Below, one piece after another: positions 2,978 through 52,341 of a DNA stretch of 64,000 nt. Origin of the DNA: an archaeon (lineage in GTDB: Archaea; Iainarchaeota; Iainarchaeia; Iainarchaeales; Iainarchaeaceae); NCBI GenBank assembly GCA_035655435.1, contig DASRUN010000066.1, positions 520-64,519 of the forward strand. The letters are read 5' to 3'. A program made the translations under genes and the position numbers. Below the pieces are notes generated by a model that was not told the DNA's origin, did no database searches, and saw nothing but the letters and a program-made list of their open reading frames with translations. The first letter of the stretch is position 1. Each line of letters begins with the position of its first letter.

Positions 2978-3778
2978 TTAGTAGTTTTGGAGGGCTTTTT
3001 CGGCGTTTAACCGGTTCCAAATTACAAGAATTTTATTGGCATAATGGTTTCCGGTTGAATCTCCAAGGCTCTTTGCAGAACCCCTGCCCCTATTATAAGC
3101 AGCCCATCTCCTGAAAGGGGTTTGATATTCTTTGTTTGGAGGATGCTGTTTTAACCACAAAAAAGTCCTTACAATGCCCTCAATATTTTGAACCGGGTCA
3201 AACGGATCAATTATTGTTATTGGGTGCTCCGGTAAATTCTTTAGAGTTTCAATTTGAGAGGGCATTAACTGCCCAAACCCCGCATCCCCTGCTTTTCCCC
3301 TGGCATTTGGATTGTAATGGGATTCGTGTTCTATAACAGCCAAAATTTCGTGCGGGTCAACAAATTCAACACCACTTGAATTATATTTTCTGCATTCTTC
3401 CGCCACAAGAATTTTAATGTCGTGAACAAGCTCCGGCGGAACATTTCTGAGGTCAAACGCATTGGTTGTGAAGCGCACTCCATAGGCGCGGGCAAATTCC
3501 TCGCCTTTAAGCCCCGGTCTGAAAATTTTGAATTTTTGCGGAGAACGAATAACGTGAATTTTTTCCCTTTTAATTATTTCTTCCGGCTCAATTGCTTTTA
3601 ACTCGACATTGTTACGAATTGATTTTTGACCCAAATTTCCTGCAGGCATATTTGAGTTCGGCCTTAGGTTTCTTCCAACACCCAAACCCGCCAGAAATGC
3701 AGAGATTCCCGTAGCTGCTGAAGCGCCCAAAAATTGGCGCCTTGTAATTCCTGACCCTTTTGAATTTCTTTTTGGCAT
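2978..3778 (-). CDS. Tat-signal lytic transglycosylase (SLT domain) protein
   Basis: 266 aa. Twin-arginine leader SGITRRQFLGASAATGISAFLAG. Catalytic-type motif EHESHYNPNARGKAGDAGFGQLMP (E-S ... AG.G.GQLMP) as in SLT/goose-lysozyme-like transglycosylases. Confidence 0.75.
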   Translation of the reverse strand: MPKRNSKGSGITRRQFLGASAATGISAFLAGLGVGRNLRPNSNMPAGNLGQKSIRNNVELKAIEPEEIIKREKIHVIRSPQKFKIFRPGLKGEEFARAYGVRFTTNAFDLRNVPPELVHDIKILVAEECRKYNSSGVEFVDPHEILAVIEHESHYNPNARGKAGDAGFGQLMPSQIETLKNLPEHPITIIDPFDPVQNIEGIVRTFLWLKQHPPNKEYQTPFRRWAAYNRGRGSAKSLGDSTGNHYANKILVIWNRLNAEKALQNY

Positions 3779-4903: not shown

Positions 4904-5548
4904 TCACTTCAACCCGGCAATAGAGTCCAGGAATTCGTGCGAATTTATTTCCCCGATCAAATGGTTTTCGAATAAAACCACGCCTTTTTCCGGCCACGCG
5001 GGCCAAACAGAAGTAAAGCCTTTTTCGCGCAACGAATCACAATACTCTTTTATTTGTTCAAAGTGCATCCAACTTGCATCCACATATGATTTTTTTTCAT
5101 CCTTGAAATGCAATCCTTCGCAGAATTTGTATTCATTCGCATAATCGGAAATTGCTTTATCTGAAATGAACGGGAACATTCTGCATTCTAATGGGCGCTC
5201 GGAGTATATTCCGCATCCCGGAAGTTCTTTATTATAAAATTCACAAAAGCCATCTTCTTTTCTTTTGAAAACTATTGCGGGAACGGCAATGAAAAAATTC
5301 GGCAAAAACCCATTCACGGATTCTATTGAATCGCAAATATGCTTTGGCATTAAGGTGCTGCTCACAACAATTTTATCCTGGGAATATTCTCTTGCAAAAA
5401 GATGCAAAAATAATTGGCAGTGAGTTTCAATGAATTCCTTTTTTGTTTCGCCCAAAAACTTCGCCTGGCGATTGACCTCTTCCGGCAAAGAAACAATGTA
5501 ATAGCGTTTGCAGCACTCTCCGCAGCGCTGGCACTCGAAGTTCAGCAT
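4904..5548 (-). CDS. YkgJ-family CxxCxxCC zinc/iron-chelating domain protein
   Basis: 214 aa. N-terminal FECQRCGECCKRY motif. Confidence 0.6.
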   Translation of the reverse strand: MLNFECQRCGECCKRYYIVSLPEEVNRQAKFLGETKKEFIETHCQLFLHLFAREYSQDKIVVSSTLMPKHICDSIESVNGFLPNFFIAVPAIVFKRKEDGFCEFYNKELPGCGIYSERPLECRMFPFISDKAISDYANEYKFCEGLHFKDEKKSYVDASWMHFEQIKEYCDSLREKGFTSVWPAWPEKGVVLFENHLIGEINSHEFLDSIAGLK

Positions 5549-6499: not shown

Positions 6500-6588
6500 G
6501 CCCTCGTGGCTCAGTGGTAGAGCGGCGGTTTTGTAACCCGAAAGGGCAAACTAACCGCAGGTCGTGGGTTCAATCCCCACCGAGGGCT
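6500..6588 (+). tRNA. tRNA-Thr (TGT) with 17-nt intron
   Basis: Acceptor GCCCTCG/CGAGGGC, anticodon stem GCGGT/ACCGC, loop TTTGTA|A. Canonical 37/38 intron at 6536-6552 (ACCCGAAAGGGCAAACT, with a CCC-GAAA-GGG hairpin). Confidence 0.8.
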
Positions 6589-8232: not shown

Positions 8233-9090
8233 ATGTTTGAAGCAATAGGCGCGGAAATAGCATTCAGCCATTATGTTCAAAGCTTTGCAAACTCATCGCT
8301 TGACTATTTTTTTCTTGTAATAACACAATTAGGAAACCCTGCTCTCTGGTTATCGCTCAGCGCATTTCTTTATTGGAAAGGCGAGGAAAAAAAATCTGTT
8401 TTTCTTTCAACTTCTCTTTTATTCACGAGCGCATTTGTGGGGCTCCTAAAACCAACTCTTGGGAGATTGAGACCGCCTGAAAGTGAATTCATGGTTCTTG
8501 TTAGTGAAACCCAATCACAATTTGCAATGCCTTCAGGGCATGCAACAACAATCGCAGGGGTTTTCGGTTATTATTGGGAGAAATTTGCGAAAAATGCAAG
8601 AGTGCTGGGATTGTTTATTGTTCTTTTAGTTCTTGCATCAAGGGTTTATTTGGGGGCACATTATATTGGCGATGTAATTGTTGGAGGCCTCTTTGGTTTT
8701 TTGATTGGGAGAATTGTGCATGCAATTGAACAGAATTATTCGAAAATAAAATTCGGAAAAAAAGTTTTGCTCGAGGAAATAGGTTTGGTTGCAACTATTG
8801 CAATTTCAATTATAATATCGCTCGCGCTCAGAGAATTTTCTTTGGGCACAATATTCTTTGGTTACTTTGCAGGAGTTTTTGCATTCAAGCTTTTGAACCT
8901 TGATTCTGAAAAACTTTCCGGGAAAAAACTTTGGTTAAAGGAAATCCCCGGTTTTGCGGTTTTGGGAATTTTGAGTTTTTTTGCACTCAATACAGAATTC
9001 ATGCCGGAACTGCTTTTCCTTGCGGGAAGTTGGATTAGTTTTGTTTATCCGTTCATTTACCTAAAAGTATCCAAAAAACCTGTTAAATAA
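8233..9090 (+). CDS. PAP2-family lipid phosphatase
   Basis: All three PAP2 motifs are present: KPTLGRLRPP, PSGHAT, SRVYLGAHYIGDV. Multi-pass membrane protein. Confidence 0.75.
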   Translation: MFEAIGAEIAFSHYVQSFANSSLDYFFLVITQLGNPALWLSLSAFLYWKGEEKKSVFLSTSLLFTSAFVGLLKPTLGRLRPPESEFMVLVSETQSQFAMPSGHATTIAGVFGYYWEKFAKNARVLGLFIVLLVLASRVYLGAHYIGDVIVGGLFGFLIGRIVHAIEQNYSKIKFGKKVLLEEIGLVATIAISIIISLALREFSLGTIFFGYFAGVFAFKLLNLDSEKLSGKKLWLKEIPGFAVLGILSFFALNTEFMPELLFLAGSWISFVYPFIYLKVSKKPVK

Positions 9091-9145: not shown

Positions 9146-9263
9146 CCCTCCTTAGCTTAGTAGCTAAAGCGTCCGGCTGTAGAACGACATTACTCCTTTG
9201 GGAGAGAAAATAATCGCAAGTGCGGTTACCGGAAGACCCCCGGTGCAAATCCGGGAGGGGGGA
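9146..9263 (+). tRNA. tRNA-Tyr (GTA) with 45-nt intron
   Basis: Acceptor CCCTCCT/AGGGGGG (one G-U), D stem GCTT/AAGC, anticodon stem TCCGG/CCGGA, loop CTGTAG|A. Intron at 9183-9227. T arm CCCGG-TGCAAAT-CCGGG. Confidence 0.8.
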
Positions 9264-22159: not shown

Positions 22160-22170
22160 AGGACATTAAT

Positions 22171-22258
22171 ATAGCAAACGGGAAAGGTAATTTTATAGAT
22201 TCATTTCCGTTTGCTATCTAGCAGACCGCATTTATGCCGTAACTTTCGTGGTCTGCTA
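22171..22258 (+). ncRNA. two-hairpin element, copy 1 (candidate small RNA)
   Basis: ATAGCAAAC-N29-GTTTGCTAT, then (TA)GCAGACC-N22-GGTCTGC(TA), followed by TGATTTTTT. Homologous to 52254-52341. Strand inferred from the downstream T-run only. Confidence 0.35.
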
Positions 22259-28148: not shown

Positions 28149-29613
28149 TTTGGTTGACGGTTGGGCGGTAATAGATTCTTATTTTAGGGACAAAAACATT
28201 GCCCAAATGGAAATAGATTCGTTCAACCAGTTTGTGGAAAAAAAACTCGATGAAATAATTGCGGAAAACAAGGAAGTTGTTCCGAAAATCGAGGAAGTAA
28301 AAGTTCAATTTGACAAAATTTCCGTTATAAAACCGCGCATAGTGGAAGCTGACGGCTCTCCTAGAAACGAATTTTTCCCAATGGAAGCAAGATTGAGAAA
28401 TAGAACTTATTCAAGCCCGATTTTTTTGACAATGAAACTTTTGAGAAGAGATGTTGAACAGGATAAAAAACAAACTTACATCGGAGAGCTTCCTGTAATG
28501 TTGAAAAGCAATTTGTGCTGGTTGAACGGTAAAACAAACGAAGAACTTATTGAAATGGGCGAAGATCATCTTGATTTCGGCGGATATTTCATTGTAAACG
28601 GTTCTGAAAAAGCGTTGATGACACAGGAAGTTCTTGCATCCGACAGGGTTATTGTTTCTGAACAATCCGATAGAATTGTCGCGGAAGTTATTTCAACAAG
28701 GGGAGCTTTCAAAGGAAGGGTTAGAATTCTTAGAACTCCTGACGGAATTTTGAATGTTACATTTCCTGCTTCCCCTAGAAAATTAAAATTATTTGTTTTG
28801 CTCAAAGCACTTGGATTGAGAAGCCCGCAAACAATTAAGGAAGCTTTCATTGAACAACAGGAAATTCAAAATGATGTTTTGATTAACATTGAAAATCTTT
28901 TGGTTAAGAGCGAGAAGGAAGCACTTGATAAAATCGGAAAGTTTGTTGCACCCGGACAAGTGGAAGAATACAGGTTGAGAAGAGCCCAGGAAGTTATTGA
29001 TGCATTCTTATTGCCGCACATTGGACAGGATCAAAAAGACAGATTGGCAAAAGCATATTATTTGGTTATGATGGCAACCAAGGCAATTGAAAAAGCCTAC
29101 AAATTGAGAGAAGAAGATGACAAAGATCATTACGCAAACAAGAGATTGGAATTGTCGGGAAAATTAATGGAACACTTGTTCAGATATTCTTTCAAATATT
29201 TCATCAAGGATTTGAAATTCCAAATTGACAGAACAGTTACAAGGAGAAGAAAACTTAACATTTCAACAATTGTAAGACCGGGCGCGGTTTCGGAAAGAAT
29301 CAGATTTGCAATGAGCACAGGAAATTGGATTGGACGCGCTACAGGAGTTTCAAAATTCATGGATCGAGTAAATTATTTATCTCCATTAACGGATTTGAGA
29401 AAAGTAAAAAGCCCATTGGATAAAAACAGGGAACTTTATGAAGCAAGAGATGTTCACGGAACGCATTGGGGAAGATTGTGCGCAATAGAAACTCCTGACG
29501 GACCGCAATGTGGGTTGGTAAAAAATCTTGCATTGATGGCAGAGGTTACGGTTGAAACGGATGAAGAGCCGATTGAAAAATTGTTGAAGGATATGGGCGT
29601 GAAATTAAGATGA
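28138..29613 (+). CDS. rpoB2: RNA polymerase subunit B'' (N-terminal half of split RpoB)
   Basis: 491 aa. IDSFNQFV..., ANKRLELSGKLM, and ends after GLVKNLALMAEV. TTG start overlaps the rpoH stop. Confidence 0.9.
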   Translation: MWFNLVDGWAVIDSYFRDKNIAQMEIDSFNQFVEKKLDEIIAENKEVVPKIEEVKVQFDKISVIKPRIVEADGSPRNEFFPMEARLRNRTYSSPIFLTMKLLRRDVEQDKKQTYIGELPVMLKSNLCWLNGKTNEELIEMGEDHLDFGGYFIVNGSEKALMTQEVLASDRVIVSEQSDRIVAEVISTRGAFKGRVRILRTPDGILNVTFPASPRKLKLFVLLKALGLRSPQTIKEAFIEQQEIQNDVLINIENLLVKSEKEALDKIGKFVAPGQVEEYRLRRAQEVIDAFLLPHIGQDQKDRLAKAYYLVMMATKAIEKAYKLREEDDKDHYANKRLELSGKLMEHLFRYSFKYFIKDLKFQIDRTVTRRRKLNISTIVRPGAVSERIRFAMSTGNWIGRATGVSKFMDRVNYLSPLTDLRKVKSPLDKNRELYEARDVHGTHWGRLCAIETPDGPQCGLVKNLALMAEVTVETDEEPIEKLLKDMGVKLR

Positions 29614-29624
29614 TTGCAAACCAA

Positions 29625-29727
29625 ATGAGTGGGACCGTAGGTCGCACAGGTCTGACGGCGAACCAAGTGCTGCCGAAGGCGCACGCTCCCTTCCGAGGAG
29701 CACGCTCGGACGCGGAGGTGTTCCCGA
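29625..29727 (+). promoter_or_regulatory. GC-rich structured leader cassette, copy A (before rpoB')
   Basis: GTGGGACC-GTA-GGTCGCAC hairpin, CACAGGTCTGACGGCG, GCTCC/GGAGC hairpin, GAGCAC word. Ends GGAGGTG + 7 nt + ATG. See findings. Confidence 0.55.
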
Positions 29728-31551
29728 ATGGTTAAGGAAGCAAAGCAGGCAAAGGTTTACATTAACGGAAGACTTATCGGATTCCATCCCGATCCCATGA
29801 AATTGACAAGGGAAATTATTGCGCGCAGAAGAGAGTCAAAAATCTCCGAGCAGGCAAATGTTGCTTTCCACGAAGATACAAATGAAGTTTACATTAACAC
29901 AGACGCAGGAAGGGTTCAGAGACCGTTGCTTGTTGTTGAGAACGGAAAATTAAAAATTACCGATGAAATTGTAAAGCAGGTTAAGGAAGTTAAAAAAACT
30001 TGGCAGGATCTTATCCGCGAGGGATATGTTGAATACCTCGATGCGGAAGAAGAGGAAAATGCTTTCATTGCTTCAAACGAAAAAGAACTCGGAAAAGAGC
30101 ACACGCATTTGGAAATTGATTCCGCAACAATTTTGAGTGTAATAAGTTCCATGATTCCTTATCTCGAACACAACATGGCGGGAAAAGCGCTTCACGGAGC
30201 AAAAATGTTCAAGCAGGCACAGGGTTTCGGAGCAAGCAATTTTAATCTTAGAAGCGATACTGAAGGATATCTTTTGCATTACCCACAAAAATCTTTGGTG
30301 AAAACAAAAACAATGCACATGGTTGGATTGAATCAGAGACCGCAAATTCAGAATCTTGTTGTTGCAATAATGCCGTATTACGGCTTCAATATTTTGGATG
30401 CAGTAATTCTCAATAGAGGCGCTGTGGAAAGAGGAATGGGAAGAAGCTCTTATTTTAGAACTTATGAAAGCGCGGAAAACAGGTATCCTGGCGGACAGAT
30501 AGATAAATTTGAAATTCCGACAGAAGAAACCGTCGGATTTTTGGGAGAAGGATTTTACAAAAAGCTTGGTCATGACGGAATAATCCAGCTTGAATCCATT
30601 GTTGAAGAAAATGATGTTTTGATTGGAAGAACCTCCCCTCCAAGATTTTTGGAAGAAATCAATGAGTTCGGTGTTGTTCAGGAAAAAAGAAGGGAAACAA
30701 GCGTTACAATAAGAAAAGGCAAGGACGGTTTTGTTGACAAAATTTTTGTAACAGAATCGGAAGCCGGAAACAAGCTTGTGAAAGTTAAAGTTAGAAGCCA
30801 GAGAATTCCCGCGCTTGGAGATAAATTCAGTTCAAGGCACGGGCAGAAAGGTGTTGTTGGATTAATTGTTCCTGAGGAAGACATGCCTTTTACACCCGAT
30901 GGAATAAAACCTGATTTGATTTTGAACCCGCACTCTGTTCCTTCAAGAATGACCATTGGACACTTGCTTGAAATGCTTGCGGGAAAAGCTTCCGCAATGA
31001 AAGCAATGCAGATAGACGGAACTCCTTTTGGCGGAGTCAAACAAGCTGAACTTGAAAAAATGCTTGATGCAGCCGGATTAAGAAAAAATGCAAAAGAAGT
31101 TTTTTACGACGGTACAACAGGAAAAAGAATCCAAGGAGAAATTTTTACGGGACCGGTTGCTTATAGAAGATTGTTCCACATGACCGCGCACAAAATACAA
31201 AGCAGAGCTCGCGGACCGGTTCAGATTTTGACAAGACAGCCTACAGAAGGAAAGGAAAAAGAGGGCGGATTAAGATTTGGAGAAATGGAAGGAGAAACAT
31301 TGGTTGGACACGGAGCGGCAATGCTTTTGCAGGAAAAATTCATTGATGATTCCGATAAAGTTACAATGTGGGTTTCCGAAACCGCGGGAGTAATAGGATT
31401 TGAGGATCAAATCAGAAAAGTGAAGAGGGTTCTTGAGGCAAATGATTCGAAAATTTATCCTGTTGAAATGAGCTATGGTTTCAAATTATTGCTTGATGAA
31501 TTGAAAGCTCTTGGAGTATATCCTAAATTGATTTTGACGGACAAGGTGTAA
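29728..31551 (+). CDS. rpoB1: RNA polymerase subunit B' (C-terminal half of split RpoB)
   Basis: 607 aa. GDKFSSRHGQKGV, NPHSVPSRMTIG, and GGLRFGEMEGETLVGHGA motifs. Confidence 0.95.
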   Translation: MVKEAKQAKVYINGRLIGFHPDPMKLTREIIARRRESKISEQANVAFHEDTNEVYINTDAGRVQRPLLVVENGKLKITDEIVKQVKEVKKTWQDLIREGYVEYLDAEEEENAFIASNEKELGKEHTHLEIDSATILSVISSMIPYLEHNMAGKALHGAKMFKQAQGFGASNFNLRSDTEGYLLHYPQKSLVKTKTMHMVGLNQRPQIQNLVVAIMPYYGFNILDAVILNRGAVERGMGRSSYFRTYESAENRYPGGQIDKFEIPTEETVGFLGEGFYKKLGHDGIIQLESIVEENDVLIGRTSPPRFLEEINEFGVVQEKRRETSVTIRKGKDGFVDKIFVTESEAGNKLVKVKVRSQRIPALGDKFSSRHGQKGVVGLIVPEEDMPFTPDGIKPDLILNPHSVPSRMTIGHLLEMLAGKASAMKAMQIDGTPFGGVKQAELEKMLDAAGLRKNAKEVFYDGTTGKRIQGEIFTGPVAYRRLFHMTAHKIQSRARGPVQILTRQPTEGKEKEGGLRFGEMEGETLVGHGAAMLLQEKFIDDSDKVTMWVSETAGVIGFEDQIRKVKRVLEANDSKIYPVEMSYGFKLLLDELKALGVYPKLILTDKV

Positions 31552-31556
31552 TTGAT

Positions 31557-31653
31557 ATGATGACAAAAATGTTGAACGAAGCTAGTGTGACCGCAGGTCG
31601 TGGCATCGAGCACCGCGAAGATGGCACACCTCTCTCAGCGAGGTGTCGCTGAA
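31557..31653 (+). promoter_or_regulatory. GC-rich structured leader cassette, copy B (before rpoA')
   Basis: Begins with a duplicate of the rpoA' start (ATGATGACAAAAA). GTGTGACC-GCA-GGTCG hairpin. ACACCTC/GAGGTGT hairpin holds the SD 8 nt before ATG 31654. Confidence 0.55.
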
Positions 31654-34266
31654 ATGATGACAAAAAGAATTGAGGGAATTGAATTCAGGATTATGGGTCC
31701 GGAGTTTATTAGAAAAATGAGCGGGATAGAAATCAAGAGCCCTGAAACTTATGATAAAGACGGCTTCCCAATGGAAGGCGGATTGATGGATAATCATCTT
31801 GGGGTTATCAATCCCGGATTGAGATGCAAGACCTGCGGAAATACAATGAAAAAATGCCCCGGCCACTTTGGACACATAGAATTGGTTAGGCCGATTGCAC
31901 ACTCTGAATTCGGAAAAAAACTTGAAATTTTGATGCAGGCAACATGCCAGAGCTGCGGAAGAATAGCAATCCAAGCTGATAAGCTTGAGCAGTTAAGGGC
32001 TTTTATCGGCGATGAAACAATTAATATTGCAAAAAAGATTTTGGCAAAAACAAAAAAAGTGAAAAAATGTCCGCATTGTACTGCTGACAGACGCGAAATT
32101 TCACTTGACAAGCCCACAAACTTTTACATTGACAAGGACAGAATTTATCCCACGCAAATAAGGGAATGGGTTGAAAAAATCCCCGACAAGGATTTGGAAT
32201 TCTTTGGTTATGAACAAGGAAAACTCAGGCCGGAGTGGTTTATCATGACCGTGCTCCAGGTTCCGCCGATCAATCTTAGGCCGAGCATTACACTTGAATC
32301 AGGAATAAAAAGCGAAGACGATCTAACACACAAACTTGTTGATATAATTAGAATAAACATGAGATTGAAGGACAACATTGATGCAGGCGCACCGCAACTT
32401 ATCATTGAAGATCTTTGGGATTTGCTCCAATATCATGTGACAACGTATTTCAACAATAATACCGCGGGAGTTCCTCCGGCAAAACACAGGAGCGGAAGAG
32501 CACTTAGAACTCTTGTGCAAAGATTGCAGGGAAAGAAAGGAAGATTCAGGTACAACTTAACAGGAAAAAGAGTTAATTTTGCGGCTCGTTCAATCATAAC
32601 TCCCGATCCAATGCTTTCAATCAACGAACTCGGTGTTCCCCAAGAAATTGCGGACAACATGACTGTTCCGGAAATAATTACAAAAGGAACCTTGACAGAA
32701 GCAAAGAACATGATCAAGGAAGGAAAAGTAATTTATGTTATCAGGCCTGATGGAATGAGAAAAAAAGTTGTTGAGGCAAACATGGAAGCTATTTTGGAAG
32801 AGCTTGATGTCGGATTTAAACTTGACAGAAAATTGAAAGACGGAGATATTGTTCTCTTTAACAGACAGCCTTCGTTGCACAGGCTTTCAATGCTCGCACA
32901 CAGAGCAAAAATTATGAAAGACAAGACATTCAGATTGAATTCAATTGTGTGCAAACCATACAATGCGGACTTTGATGGAGACGAAATGAACATGCATGTT
33001 CCGCAAACTCCTGAAGGAATTGCGGAAGCAACAGAACTAATGCTTGTTGAAAAACAAATTATTTCCCCAAGATACGGAGCCCCGGTAATAATTCTTGATG
33101 AAGACGGAGTTTCAGGATGCTTTATACTAACAATGAAGCAAACCGTGTTTGATAAGGATAAGGCGTTCCAGTTTTTCCAGTTAATGAATTTGCAGGAAAT
33201 TCCAAAGCCGGATGTCGGAAAGGACAAATATTCAGGAAAACTAATTTTCTCGCAATTGTTGCCAAAAGATTTGAACATGGAGTACAAAACCAAATTGCAT
33301 GACATAATCAAAAGAGAAGATCCAAACAACGCACTATTGAAAGACCCGTACAAGAATGATTTGATAGTTAAGATTGAGAAAGGCCAATTGAAAGCCGGAA
33401 TAATTGATGCGGTCAGTCTTGGAGAAGGAAAAGGAAAACTTGTTGATGCACTTGCAAGGGATTATCCTCCTGCAGTAATAAGGGGTTTTTATGACAGTAT
33501 TTCAAAAATAATCGGCGGTCTTATAACGGAAGTTGGAATGACAGTAAGCCTTGAGGAATACACTCCGAGCAGCAAGATACTCAGTTTGAGAGAAAAAGCC
33601 GTTGAGGAAATGAGAAAAGAAACCGATTCGTGGGTTAAAAAATTCGAGAAAGGACATCTCGATTTAATTCCGGGAAGAAATCAGGAAGAGAGCTTTGAAA
33701 TTTACATGATGAGAACAGGGGCAGCTGCAAAAGAAAAATTGCAGAAGCAAATCATGAAAGAACTTGTTGATTCTGTAATGGTTGATGAACCTGAATTCAA
33801 CAGCAATGTAATGATACTTTCAGGTTCAAGAGGAAACATCATCAATCTTGTAAACTTATCCGGAATGTGGGGACAGGCATCTGTAAGAGAGGGAAGGCCG
33901 AAGAGAGGATTCTCGAATAGATTGATCGCACTCAACAAAAGAAAGGATGTTGGAATAGATGCGGGGGGATTCATTTACCACAATTTCATGGAAGGAATGA
34001 GCTCTTATGAATACTTCTATCACACAATGGGTGGAAGACAGGGAGAAGTTGACACGGGAGTTTCAACAAAGGTTTCCGGTTATTTGTACAGAAGGCTGGC
34101 AAATTCTTTGAAGGATCTTGTTGTAAACAATGATGCAACTGTGAGAACGGCAAACAAGAATATTGTACAGTACAAGTACGGAGAAGACGGAGTCTTCCCG
34201 GAAAAAACATTTAAAGGAAAAAGCGTTTCTGTGAAAAGAGAGCTTGAAAAAATGAGAAGCAAGTGA
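31654..34266 (+). CDS. rpoA1: RNA polymerase subunit A'
   Basis: Zinc motifs [17 protein letters not shown], and the [10 protein letters not shown] catalytic loop. Start set at [11 protein letters not shown]. The ORF-track start 31600 reads through the GC-rich cassette. Confidence 0.95.
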
Positions 34267-36266: not shown

Positions 36267-36292
36267 AAGATTTGTTTACAAAAGTTTTGATT

Positions 36293-36426
36293 ATGAATGA
36301 AGCTCGTGTGACCGAAGGTCGCACACCTCTGAACTCCCGGAACGCCGGGAGCACGTTGCACCGCACTTTGTGCGGGGCTAGTCCAACCGAAGGTTGGACA
36401 CCTCTGAACGCGGAGGTGTCCGCATA
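36293..36426 (+). promoter_or_regulatory. GC-rich structured leader cassette, copy C (before rps12)
   Basis: Five hairpins folded by hand: 36306-24, 36335-50, 36361-75, 36383-97, and 36396-421. The last pairs GGACACCTC with GAGGTGTCC, i.e. the SD. Confidence 0.55.
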
Positions 36427-36864
36427 ATGGCAGAAGGAGAATTTGCGGGAAGCAGTTTGCAGAAAAAAAGGAAAAAGTGGCGCAGAAAAGACAGGAAGCA
36501 CCAGAAAAAAATTAAAGCAAAAATGGGGAAAGCCAAAAGAGAAGATCTTTTGGAAGGGTCTCCGCAAGCGAAAGGAATTGTAATTGAAAAAAGAGGGGTA
36601 ACGGCAAAGCAACCTAACTCCGGAATAAGAAAATGTGTAAGAGTACAGTTGATAAAAAACGGCAAGCAGGTTACGGCTTTGGCGCCAAAAGACGGTGCAA
36701 TAAAATTTATCGATGAACATGATGAGGTTACAATAGAGGGAATCGGCGGAGCACAAGGCGGTCCAAAGGGAGATCTTTGGGGCGTTAAGTACAGGGTTAC
36801 GCATGTAAACGGAATTGCACTTGAAATGCTTAGAAAAGGAAAGAAAGAGAAAGTTAAGAGATGA
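36427..36864 (+). CDS. rps12: ribosomal protein uS12
   Basis: [36 protein letters not shown] signature. Start set at MAEGEF (the track start 36394 reads through the cassette). Confidence 0.95.
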
Positions 36865-37494: not shown

Positions 37495-37530
37495 TGAGCT
37501 GATTGAATGAAAAATTATTTTACAACTACA

Positions 37531-37626
37531 ATGAGCGAAGCTAGTGTGACCGAAGGTCGTGGCATCGAGCACCGCGAAGATGACACAGGTCTAACGGCGG
37601 ACCTCTCCGCCGCGAGGTGTCGCTGA
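37531..37626 (+). promoter_or_regulatory. GC-rich structured leader cassette, copy D (before EF-2)
   Basis: About 50 nt nearly identical to copy B. Segments AGGTC, GACCTC and GAGGTGT form mutually exclusive pairings. TGA is followed directly by ATG 37627. Confidence 0.55.
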
Positions 37627-43900: not shown

Positions 43901-44264
43901 AAAGAAAGCAATTGGATTTGGCGGAAATGCAGGGGTTGCATTGAAGGCAATAAGGGAAAAGGATTCAATGCAAATAACTCTTCCTGTTTCCTCAATGAAT
44001 TTTAATTTTGCGCTAACCGATCCGGTTGGGGAAACAGAACAACAATTGTTCACATTGAACACCGGATCATTGCAATCCGGAGTTTACACTTTGACGGCTG
44101 AAATTACACAAACAATGCCGGAAAACGATACAATAAGGGCGGATAACATTGATTCGGAAACAATAATAATCAAACCAAGGGCAACGGTTGCCGCGCCCGA
44201 AATACACCCAATATTTGTAGTTTTGATTGTATTCGCTGTTTTGATGATCCTTAAAAGGAACTAA
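40977..44264 (+). CDS. giant surface protein with LamG/concanavalin-like domain, Cys-rich modules, CARDB-like region and conserved C-terminal anchor
   Basis: 1095 aa. N-terminal TM helix. LamG_3-type segment LVLHMPFD...ITIAAWVN...WKHVALTYDG..AKLYVDG...GKIDDLRIYSRVLS. C-terminal VAAPEIHPIFVVLIVFAVLMILKRN. Confidence 0.65.
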   Translation: MDKQQQTIVGICIAGILLGLILIVVFLQPTPQQIENIPQTNEQETNNTLCLESCSACEFDEVCETNGIKTCINSNCETTINACSRELPLECYIQGQSDSESITAKAIRENNVDECDSLGGAEAQLCASEFYYNKFLETKDVSFCGKIIDFNIKMKCLNYDDEPQEQEPLIPTDLGNRTVQTSGKKLVESGKNFATYEISGDPDNDPSTTAMVTEVYFEPEEIRFATLSVPVSTVTGMSPNYGSNSYEWIDNVLTGRAYCRTLLGFCAPGCDCSIEGDAQRTFSSDETTETINLPNWQSQNSVEVELGSGMWGNFVISRLIFGLLNFETAPWHSNTSINIKKSGTGSFFSTGFLGTGTCFEPDVESRCNAIGGTEIRHLMSGVTPGTGLVLDPDPTGNVDVTIKLDHEVSGDSWGVFVNRSGYVSPNPRVVVYINWNRNDDPPTITAQVCSVTEGDETIISCAPTLPNDTQLLKCITTYSDPEGDRAAEAYSWEANGSAVPFEENQTISLGGFTRTNPNTFRCTFTVNPLSPSTQPDVSVTSLLATVDAVSNSGGLVLHMPFDTDFSDSSTFNNNGTPMNGATITETGKLCGALELDGTDDFVEVLDSGSLDIENEITIAAWVNTENLNGTRMIVSKYFRQGFRDNYAMMLVSSSLFGSLEKNCFRCLSAWFGTDRDVPANTWKHVALTYDGAQAKLYVDGQLKETLDETGAIGTNNEPLHIGAEKETSFRNPNPPFQDFFSGKIDDLRIYSRVLSQSEIQALTLETCNEPEPETPTCTIENANPVNIPLGGTTDVTISLENFTTPPSNFGSLACGDGATASRISCTQTQCTFRCSNYNSAGTFTINNLSGLTNGSETANCNGSAIVNVQAPINTDCSDNGGTCRNTCPISEERVPAFTCSNPSQICCIDVCPDSVEVNGSCGCGGVIINDGYCCEGIPSSTQCSEPTQNNLVGINLETDKKEYGNENAAITVTVAKKAIGFGGNAGVALKAIREKDSMQITLPVSSMNFNFALTDPVGETEQQLFTLNTGSLQSGVYTLTAEITQTMPENDTIRADNIDSETIIIKPRATVAAPEIHPIFVVLIVFAVLMILKRN

Positions 44265-44278
44265 TAGACGCTGGCGGA

Positions 44279-47443: not shown

Positions 47444-49066
47444 TTGAATGTCATGCACAAAAAAAATATTTTAATGCTTTTTCTGATTTTAACAATATTT
47501 TTAATTGGTTTTGCAACCGCGGAAACTTCAATTCGATGCCAAATAGGTGCTAGTGGAACGTTATTTGGGGTGAGCGCACCAAGCAATGCGCATGTAGCAA
47601 TAAGCACGAGTGAATACGCTAACAAGGTAGGATGCACCGCAGATACCTCAGCACCTGCGTGTAGTGATCCTAGCTCTGCAATAGCACTAAAACTTTCAAG
47701 TGCAACAAACGCGCACGCTGAATCACCAAATCTAAGCAATTACACTCAAAACATTTGCATAAAAGCATCGGCAACAAACCAACAAACTTATTGTTATGCA
47801 CTCAATGATTGTCCAAGCGACTTTATAGGATTGGTAAATCTTTATGGGGAAACAGGGCTAGTGAATGGGCAACTCACTGTAACCAATGCGCTTGTTGGAG
47901 CATACGCTGCCGGCGCACCACACATTTGTTGTGGATTGAGAGACTTAGACGATTCACCTGCTACAAGCTGTACAATAACGGCAAGCCCAACAACAATAGA
48001 AATAGGAGAAACATCAAGCATTGCAGTCACTTGTTCTAATGCATTAGGCACAACACAATGCCCAAGCGATTTGCAAATAGTTTCAACCGCCCCTGCAATA
48101 GCAACTTATGATTCAACCACTACCCAATTAACAGGAGTAAGCGCAGGAGACACAACAGCAAGAGCGACAAGCGTTTCAATTCCTGCAGTAACTTGTGTTT
48201 CGGGAACAGTAACGGTTACTGATACAATAAACAATTGTGTGATTGATGCACAAGCAACAGAAGCATGCATTTGCGGAACAGAAACTGCAAACCCGGGACA
48301 GTTCTGCTGTGCAACCGGAGTTTCTGATACTGCATGCACCACACCAACACCGAATTGTGTTGAAGGAGAAAATACAACCGGAGAAATTTGTTCATGCAAT
48401 GGTACTCCGGTTCCGGATGGAGAATATTGTTGTAGCGGAGTTGCAAGCACAGTATCATGTGATCAGCTTTGTCCGCAAGGACAAATAACAACAACTTGTA
48501 GTTGTGAAAATCAAATCAGAAATTCTGGAGACGGTTACTGCTGCAGCGGAGTTTTCCAAACAACACAATGTACAAACTCCAGTCTGAACCATGTGAAAAT
48601 CAGTGCTTTGAGACTTGAACAAACAGAGTTTTTCAAAGATTCGGAAGATCCGATTACATTTGCAATTGATGTGGAAAGAATTGACGACAGTGTAACAACA
48701 GGATATTTGGAGGCTTATTTGATACACAACATAAATCAAACCCAAACTCAGATTTTTGCGGATCCAACTAATGAATTGGAAGTTAGTTTTGTTGACGCAG
48801 AACCAATGACAATTCCCGTAAGTTTTCCAACAACATCGCTTGCAACTGGCAGTTATAGGCTTGTTGTTCACATAACATCAGAATTTGACAGAGATGGAGC
48901 TGGAAATATTGCAAATGATGAAGGGAAAGTTGATGATAATACAAAATCGGCAAGTATTCTAGTGAGAAGCGGTCCTGCCGGAGGCCCGGTAGCAGCTCCT
49001 GAAATACACCCGATATTTATAGTGTTCATACTCTTCGCGGTTTTAATGATCATTAAAAGGAACTGA
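47444..49066 (+). CDS. surface protein with three CxC...GYCC modules, CARDB-like region and conserved C-terminal anchor
   Basis: 540 aa. Signal peptide. Modules at 48266-48571. The C-terminal VAAPEIHPIFIVFILFAVLMIIKRN is nearly identical to that of 40977..44264. Confidence 0.6.
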   Translation: MNVMHKKNILMLFLILTIFLIGFATAETSIRCQIGASGTLFGVSAPSNAHVAISTSEYANKVGCTADTSAPACSDPSSAIALKLSSATNAHAESPNLSNYTQNICIKASATNQQTYCYALNDCPSDFIGLVNLYGETGLVNGQLTVTNALVGAYAAGAPHICCGLRDLDDSPATSCTITASPTTIEIGETSSIAVTCSNALGTTQCPSDLQIVSTAPAIATYDSTTTQLTGVSAGDTTARATSVSIPAVTCVSGTVTVTDTINNCVIDAQATEACICGTETANPGQFCCATGVSDTACTTPTPNCVEGENTTGEICSCNGTPVPDGEYCCSGVASTVSCDQLCPQGQITTTCSCENQIRNSGDGYCCSGVFQTTQCTNSSLNHVKISALRLEQTEFFKDSEDPITFAIDVERIDDSVTTGYLEAYLIHNINQTQTQIFADPTNELEVSFVDAEPMTIPVSFPTTSLATGSYRLVVHITSEFDRDGAGNIANDEGKVDDNTKSASILVRSGPAGGPVAAPEIHPIFIVFILFAVLMIIKRN

Positions 49067-49133
49067 TATACGCTGAAGGGCGGCCGCTTGTTGAATAACT
49101 GAAAACATCGTAGTCGTTATATTTAAATATTAG

Positions 49134-52165: not shown

Positions 52166-52253
52166 TGCGCTAGCTTCTGAATTTGGTTTCCGGAGAATCC
52201 TAGCAGCACGCCATATTCTCTTTATTGTGGTTTTGGCGTTTGTTTTCCTGCTT

Positions 52254-52341
52254 ATAGCAAACTGGATAAGTAATTCTGTTTATTTGTTGCAGTTTGCTAT
52301 CCGGCAGACCTCAATTAATACTGAAAGCTTGCGCGGTCTGC
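52254..52341 (+). ncRNA. two-hairpin element, copy 2 (candidate small RNA)
   Basis: ATAGCAAAC-N29-GTTTGCTAT, then (G)GCAGACC-N24-GGTCTGC(C), followed by TGATTTTTAAATCTTTTT. TTTATT lies about 30 nt upstream. Confidence 0.35.

Follow-up and report, generated by a model that had tools for sequence, protein, structure and literature searches.

The stretch of DNA analyzed here (the window, 64,000 nt, 39% GC) comes from an uncultured archaeon, an Iainarchaeota-like member of the DPANN, and carries at 27.9–39.8 kb an operon with the gene order rpoH-rpoB''-rpoB'-rpoA'-rpoA''-L30e-NusA-S12-S7-EF-2, four junctions of which are occupied by GC-rich, hairpin-forming cassettes (A to D). Each cassette contains a short open reading frame (ORF), termed here the relay ORF, and from sequence comparison across the clade we consider it somewhat probable that this ORF restores termination-reinitiation (TeRe) coupling across a structured insert that ends in a hairpin-locked Shine-Dalgarno (SD) sequence. 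We infer that the relay ORFs would be translated and that the downstream genes would depend on this, as well as how the inserts may have arisen and spread. Gene identities follow the Pfam families recorded for identical genes on a same-species contig, and the genomes nearest to the window are Candidatus Iainarchaeum and 'Diapherotrites' metagenome-assembled genomes.

Apart from tRNAs, the cassettes are the strongest GC islands of the 64 kb (0.65–0.72 GC over 60 nt); the remaining five operon junctions in the window measure −11 to +18 nt, and no cassette is present in its L3-L4-L23-L2-S19-L22 and EF-1alpha-S10 clusters. The cassettes and their relay ORFs are distributed as follows:

Cassette A: junction rpoB''/rpoB', 114 nt.
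Cassette B: junction rpoB'/rpoA', 102 nt.
Cassette C: junction NusA/S12, 160 nt.
Cassette D: junction S7/EF-2, 132 nt.
29610 to 29735, forward strand: relay ORF A, of 41 codons, with an ATG that overlaps the rpoB'' TGA as ATGA and a TAA 8 nt into rpoB'.
31557 to 31652, forward strand: relay ORF B, of 31 codons, beginning on a duplicated rpoA' start 5 nt past the rpoB' stop and ending as TGA-A-ATG.
36272 to 36427, forward strand: relay ORF C, 44 codons from ATG 36293; it overlaps the S12 start as TAATG.
37507 to 37626, forward strand: relay ORF D, with 39 codons when read from ATG 37507 and 31 when read from ATG 37531; it ends as TGAATG at the EF-2 start.

Measured from the upstream stops, the ORFs begin at −4 nt (A), +5 nt (B), +5 nt (C, from TTG) or +26 nt (C, from ATG) and +12 nt (D), and measured from the real starts they end at −8, +1, −1 and 0 nt, respectively. 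This is the co-directional spacing of a TeRe pair (an overlap, or a distance within ~10–20 nt), with the stop-to-start distances falling within the range shown to be workable for TeRe (PMC10666635). The segment of ORF A from 29625 to 29735 encodes MSGTVGRTGLTANQVLPKAHAPFRGARSDAEVFPNG and a stop, the frame extending upstream to ATG 29610, and the TAA (29733–29735) sits within ATGGTTAA of rpoB'; the product of ORF B, up to its stop, is MMTKMLNEASVTAGRGIEHREDGTPLSARCR; and in C the open frame reaches back to 36257 and contains TTG codons at 36272, which is 5 nt past the NusA stop, and at 36287. The four peptides and stop/start arrangements listed in the original prediction, which had been made from the letters of the window, are reproduced exactly by the sequence. 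Its remark that none of the leader ATGs has an obvious SD needs amendment for B, with a candidate AAGGTG 8 nt 5' of its ATG, and for the in-frame TTG of C, with AAGGTGA 5 nt upstream; the in-frame ATG of A overlaps the upstream stop.

The cassettes are built from shared modules. B and D are 88% identical over 68 nt and differ by 15 nt between a common GAAGCT and the stop, and B, C and D have in common a 5' module, GCTAGTGTGACC, and the string GAAGCT[A/C]GTGTGACCG[A/C]AGGTCG, the TAG and TGA of which close the other two frames. A hairpin module recurs in all four:

36308 to 36321, forward strand: 5' hairpin module GTGACCGNAGGTCG, with other copies at 29631–29644 (1 mismatch), 31587–31600 and 37546–37559.

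A second, diverged copy of this hairpin module lies within C at 36377–36409. The hairpin module is confined to this species, and a scan of viral contigs for the 5' module gave 0 matches.

At its 3' end, each cassette folds into a predicted hairpin that pairs the SD of the following gene, and two cassettes also carry a conserved hairpin, R1, of the form nnAUC-GA-[GC stem-loop]-GAA-GAUnn:

29678 to 29724, forward strand: 3' hairpin of A, pairing the SD GGAGGTG (29714–29720), −24.3 kcal/mol.
31623 to 31650, forward strand: 3' hairpin of B, pairing the SD GAGGTG (31640–31645), −13.8 kcal/mol.
36395 to 36422, forward strand: 3' hairpin of C, pairing the SD GGAGGTG (36412–36418), −20.8 kcal/mol, z −5.0.
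37578 to 37624, forward strand: 3' nested hairpins of D, pairing the SD GAGGTG (37614–37619), −21.1 kcal/mol.
31600 to 31627, forward strand: hairpin R1, copy in B.
37559 to 37586, forward strand: hairpin R1, copy in D.

The z scores of the SD hairpins range from −2.1 to −5.0 across the four cassettes, and the (G)GAGGTG lies 7–8 nt from each real start. SDs of this grade are unusual in this genome, with SD-like 4-mers standing 5' of 19% of window ORFs of at least 150 aa against a background of 9% (about twofold) and AGGTG standing 5' of just 4 of 54 long window ORFs. In R1, which is absent from A and C, both sides have changed in 5 of 10 pairs, pairing holds in 89% of cells, and the covariation score is equalled in 0 of 500 shuffles; a covariance model trained on nine copies found two more in later-fetched loci (E 3–6e-4), making 11 copies in eight genomes, every one of which occupies a junction insert of this operon in sense orientation, and none was found elsewhere in the 822 kb of loci searched on both strands. 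A K-turn reading of R1 was rejected, the covariation fixing a 2×3 GA/GAA internal loop with no 3-nt bulge plus GA. At gathering thresholds, only five tRNAs in the window pass in Rfam, and at E up to 10 nothing overlaps any cassette; nor was a U-run terminator seen in the four cassettes. A leader-peptide attenuator of the trpL or ermCL type was also discarded, since no peptide is conserved, the frame over homologous nucleotides varies, and no Rfam leader matches.

The evidence that carries the proposal comes from relatives, in which the same operon was gathered from 97 loci (L numbers below), every junction being mapped by tblastn with the window proteins. Junctions in relatives normally measure 0–25 nt, with sporadic inserts of 70–380 nt at any junction: L008 and L095, whose S7 is 82% identical, lack all four cassettes, L010 (81%) carries a single one, at the rpoB'/rpoA' site, and GC-rich inserts occur at rpoB''/rpoB' in L001, L012, L018 and L041, at rpoB'/rpoA' also in L012, at S12/S7 in L013, L016, L018 and L097, and at S7/EF-2 in L016, L096 and L069. 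Given this sporadic presence and the absence from close relatives, the cassettes are secondary insertions and not conserved leaders. BLASTN of the four cassettes against 94 loci returned a single match, 26/27 nt of the 3' module of A at a different junction in L012, and divergence within the family is too rapid for it to be followed by plain sequence searches. Other long junctions form a second, AT-rich class, found mostly 5' of L30e, which resembles ordinary spacers or promoters.

By a rule set beforehand, the frame was followed from the first ATG lying between −3 and +32 nt relative to the upstream stop, a GC-rich insert being defined as at least 5 points richer in GC than its own locus (n = 15, from 8 genomes). 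The summed ORF coverage of these 15 inserts is 10.48 against 4.57 ± 1.17 in dinucleotide shuffles, with 0 of 1000 reaching the observed value (z ~5), whereas the 39 AT-rich spacers show no such excess (9.55 against 7.84 ± 1.65, p = 0.13). The 13 spanning ORFs, each with a chance of openness of 0.06–0.42, contain 0 in-frame stops against 45 stops in the 26 off-frames; for three long inserts, a duplicated stop recognised only after inspection served as the end of the 'spanning' module, a choice of which the coverage test is independent. Gene callers had independently called bridging ORFs in L012 (69 aa), L013 (49 aa) and L097 (32 aa), and the stop-to-start spacings in relatives are 0, −8, −4, −4, +5, +5 and +5 nt. 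Three elements placed where no coupling is required, the downstream gene lying behind a long AT-rich spacer (L069, L073 at A''-L30e and L050, a small sample), have no spanning ATG ORF, which fits selection tied to coupling. All of this sequence evidence consists of metagenome assemblies, one of which has a scaffold gap within the B hairpin; the five same-species contigs carry identical cassettes, the sole difference being that N10 gap in the hairpin loop of B, so that strain polymorphism is uninformative. The gap (L003 4730–4745, ~window 31612) falls exactly at the loop of the conserved hairpin, and the true loop length there may be uncertain.

Other observations on these loci stand apart from the test. 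The rpoB'/rpoA' cassette of L012 (3215–3295) holds three tandem in-frame 27-nt repeats (L[YP]SKEQLNA / LPSKEQLNM / LPSEEQLGL), only the last of which keeps the hairpin, itself 96% identical to the 3' module of window cassette A. Many S7 homologues are called at 240–282 aa, and L013 and L016 have a GC-rich, Ala/Pro-rich S7 extension directly 3' of the S12/S7 cassette; the idea that long S7 calls are cassettes read in frame was ruled out for at least L014, which has a genuine AT-rich, Lys-rich N-terminal extension. The long spacer 5' of L30e contains a conserved motif, CCUUGAGA[AG]GCGUUA.GC..GAGUAAGGUCUUCUU, in L013 (~5150–5200), L097 (~8655–8700), L096 (~2375–2420) and L073 (~3085–3110), which could be a separate L30e leader element; the window, with an A''-L30e gap of only 18 nt, lacks it. 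In relatives, rpoB'' and/or EF-2 can be expanded: L012 has recorded Intein_splicing/LAGLIDADG domains in both, L097 has them in EF-2, and L001 has an enlarged EF-2 ORF (1282 aa), the rpoB'' and EF-2 of the window being without such expansion.

The ends of the relay ORFs can largely be traced to duplication of the gene junction itself, most clearly in B:

31544 to 31569, forward strand: 5' copy of the duplicated rpoB'/rpoA' junction, AGGTGTAATTGATATGATGACAAAAA.
31641 to 31666, forward strand: 3' copy of the duplicated junction, AGGTGTCGCTGAAATGATGACAAAAA, the source of the SD, of the stop of the ORF and of the real rpoA' start.

The flanking duplication in B is 26 nt long (p < 0.001); none is detectable for A, C and D (p 0.6–0.8). 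ORF B starts on the duplicated rpoA' start (ATGATGACAAAAA; MMTK...) behind the native GGTG, and the SD at the 3' end of the cassette derives from the last rpoB' codons (AAG GTG TAA). Cassette D has at its own 3' end (GCGAGGTGTCGCTGAA) a copy of that of B, which suggests that the copied unit includes the SD and the stop. Junction duplications are also present in L018, L069, L016, L013, L010 and L041, and in seven inserts of relatives the open frame enters the duplicated last codons of the upstream gene in frame, mostly together with the stop; the duplicated ends, each closing on a stop codon, are TDKV (L010), KDMGVKLK, VGVKLK and GKR (L018), VKR (L016), EKVKG (L013) and AAKASR (L069), with three copies of the gene end (KDMGVKLK, VGVKLK) separating two modules in L018 and a duplicated end GVQLKK having lost its stop in L041. 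In 7 of 7 recognisable cases, the open frame is that of the duplicated gene end, where 1/3 would be expected for each, and because the upstream codons and stop are duplicated at the far end, the native stop-start spacing is recreated.

What is conserved in diverged copies is the open frame. The orthologous S12/S7 cassettes of L018 and L097 differ by 3-nt and 6-nt indels and many replacements, with one frame kept. Cassette B of the window and that of L010 have a common central hairpin with a 1-nt loop difference (ACC versus GGAA), such that the codons over the 5' half of the hairpin are ATC-GAG in one and CCA-TCA-AGC in the other, those over the 3' half are GAA-GAT in both, and both run from ATG to stop; between window cassette D and the L018 S12/S7 cassette, a 4-nt loop indel shifts the frame over the 5' half of the hairpin, and both still span. 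Frame-shifting indels therefore do occur in homologous cassettes, always compensated, and the spanning ORF is kept through these or through in-frame indels, so that the comparison of relatives set as a check by the original prediction turned out in its favour. Its view that the peptide itself need not matter is also supported, there being no conserved peptide among homologous cassettes; a compensatory stem change (GGCGGA/UCCGCC to GGCGAA/UUCGCC) changes two residues, and a protein-database search with ORF C found no homologue. We lean towards the view that selection acts on frame openness and stop position and not on the peptide.

The mechanism that we envisage starts from the stacked-hairpin, GC-rich blocks that would have been inserted secondarily into the junctions of the RNA polymerase-S12-S7-EF2 operon. 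The TeRe and RNA-unfolding modes of coupling are established (PMC6728339, PMC10666635, PMC12548453), and TeRe needs an overlap or very short spacing, being nearly abolished at ~20–30 nt (PMC10666635, PMC12548453). Insert-free junctions of 0–25 nt have what would be the geometry of translationally coupled genes, and a structured spacer of 100–160 nt would break the coupling, so each insert would be kept 'translationally transparent' by its relay ORF. A ribosome leaving the upstream gene would reinitiate a few nt away, on the start codon, old or duplicated, of the downstream gene or at an ATGA overlap with the upstream stop, read through the hairpins, including the one that locks the SD (G)GAGGUG, and terminate −8 to +1 nt from the real start, where it could itself reinitiate and/or leave the SD and AUG open for a new ribosome. 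The earlier proposal that translation of the leader would open the SD hairpin, with reinitiation to follow, is partly supported, in that it fits all the sequence evidence gathered.

Several points weigh against this proposal, beginning with the window itself. The original prediction had called four open frames unlikely by chance in GC-rich sequence, an argument that runs the wrong way because such sequence has few stop codons: the probability that the frame set by the ATG is open in dinucleotide shuffles is 0.40 (A), 0.34 (B), 0.33 (C) and 0.19 (D), and under the strict first-ATG rule p is 0.43 (A), 0.13 (B) and 0.05 (C), with D failing that rule by virtue of an earlier ATG in TAATGA that stops immediately. 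The other two frames of each cassette together hold 3–7 stops; A is open in 2 of 3 frames and the 3' half of B in all three. Within the window alone, the ORF pattern is not beyond chance, and B and D, being 88% identical copies, are not independent cases. The ATG of C lies 26 nt beyond the NusA stop, with only a TTG near it; outlier ORFs in relatives stop 13–15 nt before the start (L096, L010) or overrun it by 26 nt (L041); the shuffle nulls are imperfect for hairpin-constrained sequence; part of the ORF pattern is inherited from duplicated junctions rather than evolved; and a strong SD could allow independent initiation when the hairpin breathes, making the relay dispensable.

One alternative is that the ORFs are an unselected by-product, the junction duplication giving start and stop, the stop-poor GC interior giving the rest, and the downstream gene being initiated independently from its SD. 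This agrees with the clear junction duplications (the 26 nt of window cassette B and those of the six relatives named above), with the chance openness of the window frames and with the (G)GAGGTG 7–8 nt 5' of every real start, but we think it fairly unlikely, as the interiors are open far beyond shuffles even with the flanks fixed (0/1000), the ORF frames hold 0 stops against the 45 of the off-frames, the open frame agrees with the duplicated gene end in all seven cases, and diverged homologues keep their ORFs through compensated indels. The same ORF excess would also follow if selection for 'being translated' served another end, such as ribosome cover, in which an open frame prevents premature termination of the FttA/aCPSF1 type (polarity) or nuclease attack and does not serve delivery to the next start, a further consideration against our proposal. 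Archaeal polarity on untranslated RNA is attributed to FttA in the part of PMC12548453 that cites Sanders et al. 2020, and the outlier ORFs of L096, L010 and L041 would be readily accommodated; the explanation nevertheless appears unlikely, given that most stops fall −8 to +5 nt from the real start and are often a duplicated native stop, a placement that anti-polarity alone does not need, and that strong hairpins already shield RNA from nucleases.

A protein, whether the operon-encoded L30e, S7 or NusA or another RNA binder, might instead bind R1 as a cis-regulatory RNA and tune rpoB', rpoA', S12 and EF-2, with the ORF being secondary or the step that is blocked, after the pattern of E. coli S7 acting on its coupled translation at the S12-S7 spacer. 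The covariation of R1, the confinement of its 11 copies in 8 genomes to the sense strand of this operon's junctions and the lack of a copy in the other ribosomal-protein clusters of the window all favor such a role, which we regard as quite unlikely in view of the sporadic occurrence of the cassettes, their absence from close relatives, a junction that differs between genomes, unlike that of a conserved regulator, the lack of an Rfam match or a K-turn, and the lack of R1 in A and C. It is very improbable that composition alone, that is, GC islands of an AT-rich genome being simply stop-poor, explains the ORFs: the non-significant window tests and the extra open frames of A and B are what it predicts, whereas the clade-wide z of ~5, the off-frame stop counts and the match of the frame to duplicated gene ends are not. 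Equally improbable are functional small proteins, or a cassette that is skipped or removed by bypass between duplicated codons or by RNA excision between direct repeats. There is weak peptide resemblance between some cassettes (TGL[TA]A[DN]L), and the duplicated pairs of codon and stop that flank a hairpin plus an SD-like element are reminiscent of T4 gene 60, a case of ribosomal bypassing; set against this, the reading frame over homologous nucleotides varies from copy to copy, the peptide is altered by compensatory stem changes, the search with ORF C found nothing, and bypass or excision, a bulge-helix-bulge intron included, would make an open frame unnecessary.

Beyond the relay itself, it is possible, and we suggest it tentatively, that the cassettes belong to a new kind of DPANN intercistronic element: a mosaic of hairpins able to spread between junctions within a single essential operon and to persist there as 'translationally transparent' by duplicating or carrying the stop-SD-start junction together with a relay ORF, so that ribosome hand-over continues, with the GA/GAA hairpin perhaps being a common translation handle for the cell or the element. 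Literature searches returned no description of such elements in Diapherotrites or DPANN. If the relay does operate, this operon would be an example of natural coupling across 100–160 nt of very stable RNA, two coupling events being chained by a frame whose product is of no consequence, the same solution as synthetic bicistronic designs in a reduced-genome archaeon; it would also illustrate clearly how selection can favour 'being translated' without acting on the protein, which bears on small-ORF annotation, and would define a family of structured inserts, new and marked by a conserved, operon-specific hairpin, in the most conserved archaeal gene cluster.

Elsewhere in the window, two of the five tRNA genes (6500–6588 and 9146–9263) have 19-nt and 48-nt insertions in or beside the anticodon loop, presumably introns. 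The 3' half of an intron-bearing tRNA (6553–6566) shares a 14-nt identity, ACCGCAGGTCGTGG, with cassette B (31589–31602), which had suggested a tRNA-derived origin of the cassettes; with ~0.2 such matches expected by chance (a rough estimate), this idea was set aside. The intergenic segment 45640–45930 translates to ...SANKRRSGSHILSRTARTQRAEIFTRYITHNL..., which by eye, with no homology search run, is like a transposase C-terminus; it has no Rfam match and is probably what is left of a degraded insertion sequence. A repeat of 65 nt (77% identity, 22170–22234 and 52253–52317), with the internal palindrome TAGCAAACGGGAAA...TTTCCGTTTGCTA, apparently lies between ORFs in both places, and an 89-nt repeat (82% identity, 44185–44273 and 48987–49075) shared by two adjacent large ORFs at their 3' ends, of which one ORF has Laminin_G domains in a same-species contig, looks like paralogous gene ends.

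Among known systems, the E. coli S12-S7 spacer, an autoregulatory intercistronic RNA in which S7 represses its own coupled translation, resembles the cassettes in its S12-S7-EF-G/EF-2 neighbourhood, its structured intercistronic RNA and, as proposed for the cassettes, the coupling-dependent translation downstream. The cassettes differ from it in showing no sign of rRNA mimicry or protein binding in their sequence, in a position that is not conserved, and in an element type that also precedes RNA polymerase subunits and EF-2; as compared with autoregulatory leaders in general, the structure is conserved with covariation, but the position varies and the presence is sporadic. Rickettsia palindromic elements, which are kept in frame, and the GC clusters of yeast mitochondria belong among the small palindromic repeat elements. 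Further small palindromic repeat elements are the repetitive extragenic palindromic sequences and bacterial interspersed mosaic elements (REP/BIME) and MITEs, the miniature transposable elements with inverted repeats (PMC3184786, PMC10969869). The cassettes share with palindromic repeats their GC-rich imperfect palindromes, module mosaics, sporadic occurrence among relatives, several sites per genome, and compatibility with expression of the host operon, the in-frame state being shared with the Rickettsia elements. They differ in flanking duplications that are long (18–35 nt) and cover the whole stop-SD-start junction, and in that all known copies lie in one operon, on one strand and between genes, with a start-to-stop frame of their own. 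Unlike MITEs, which have terminal inverted repeats and a short target-site duplication, only B among the cassettes is flanked by a duplication (26 nt), and terminal inverted repeats are not visible in the cassette sequences or alignment, no dedicated inverted-repeat search having been run. Genome-wide dispersal of many intergenic copies, as in REP/BIME, was not seen in the 64-kb window and the 822 kb of relatives' loci (loci, not whole genomes), where all copies are on the sense strand of one operon; the long junction duplications and this confinement appear to fit neither MITEs nor REP elements.

The closest parallels are translational. Like TeRe-coupled genes (PMC6728339, PMC10666635, PMC12548453), the ORFs here are co-directional, with ATGA, TAATG and TGAATG motifs, an SD within the upstream ORF, spacing in the workable range and an upstream ribosome that could open the structure at the start. 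They depart from such genes in that the upstream partner is a frame of 31–44 codons with no conserved product, lying wholly in an inserted hairpin block, and in that two serial coupling events, gene to relay and relay to gene, would replace one. A bicistronic design for structure-insensitive translation initiation was reportedly described by Mutalik et al. in 2013. In such synthetic designs, a leader mini-cistron makes initiation insensitive to mRNA structure (PMC6302717, PMC5995908), and the cassettes resemble them in the short leader ORF, the embedded second SD, the leader stop overlapping or abutting the real start, and the predicted unwinding of the ribosome-binding site. The arrangement described here differs in being natural, archaeal and operon-internal, in that it would be fed by the upstream gene rather than by a 5' SD of its own, and in riding on an element that was apparently copied between junctions.

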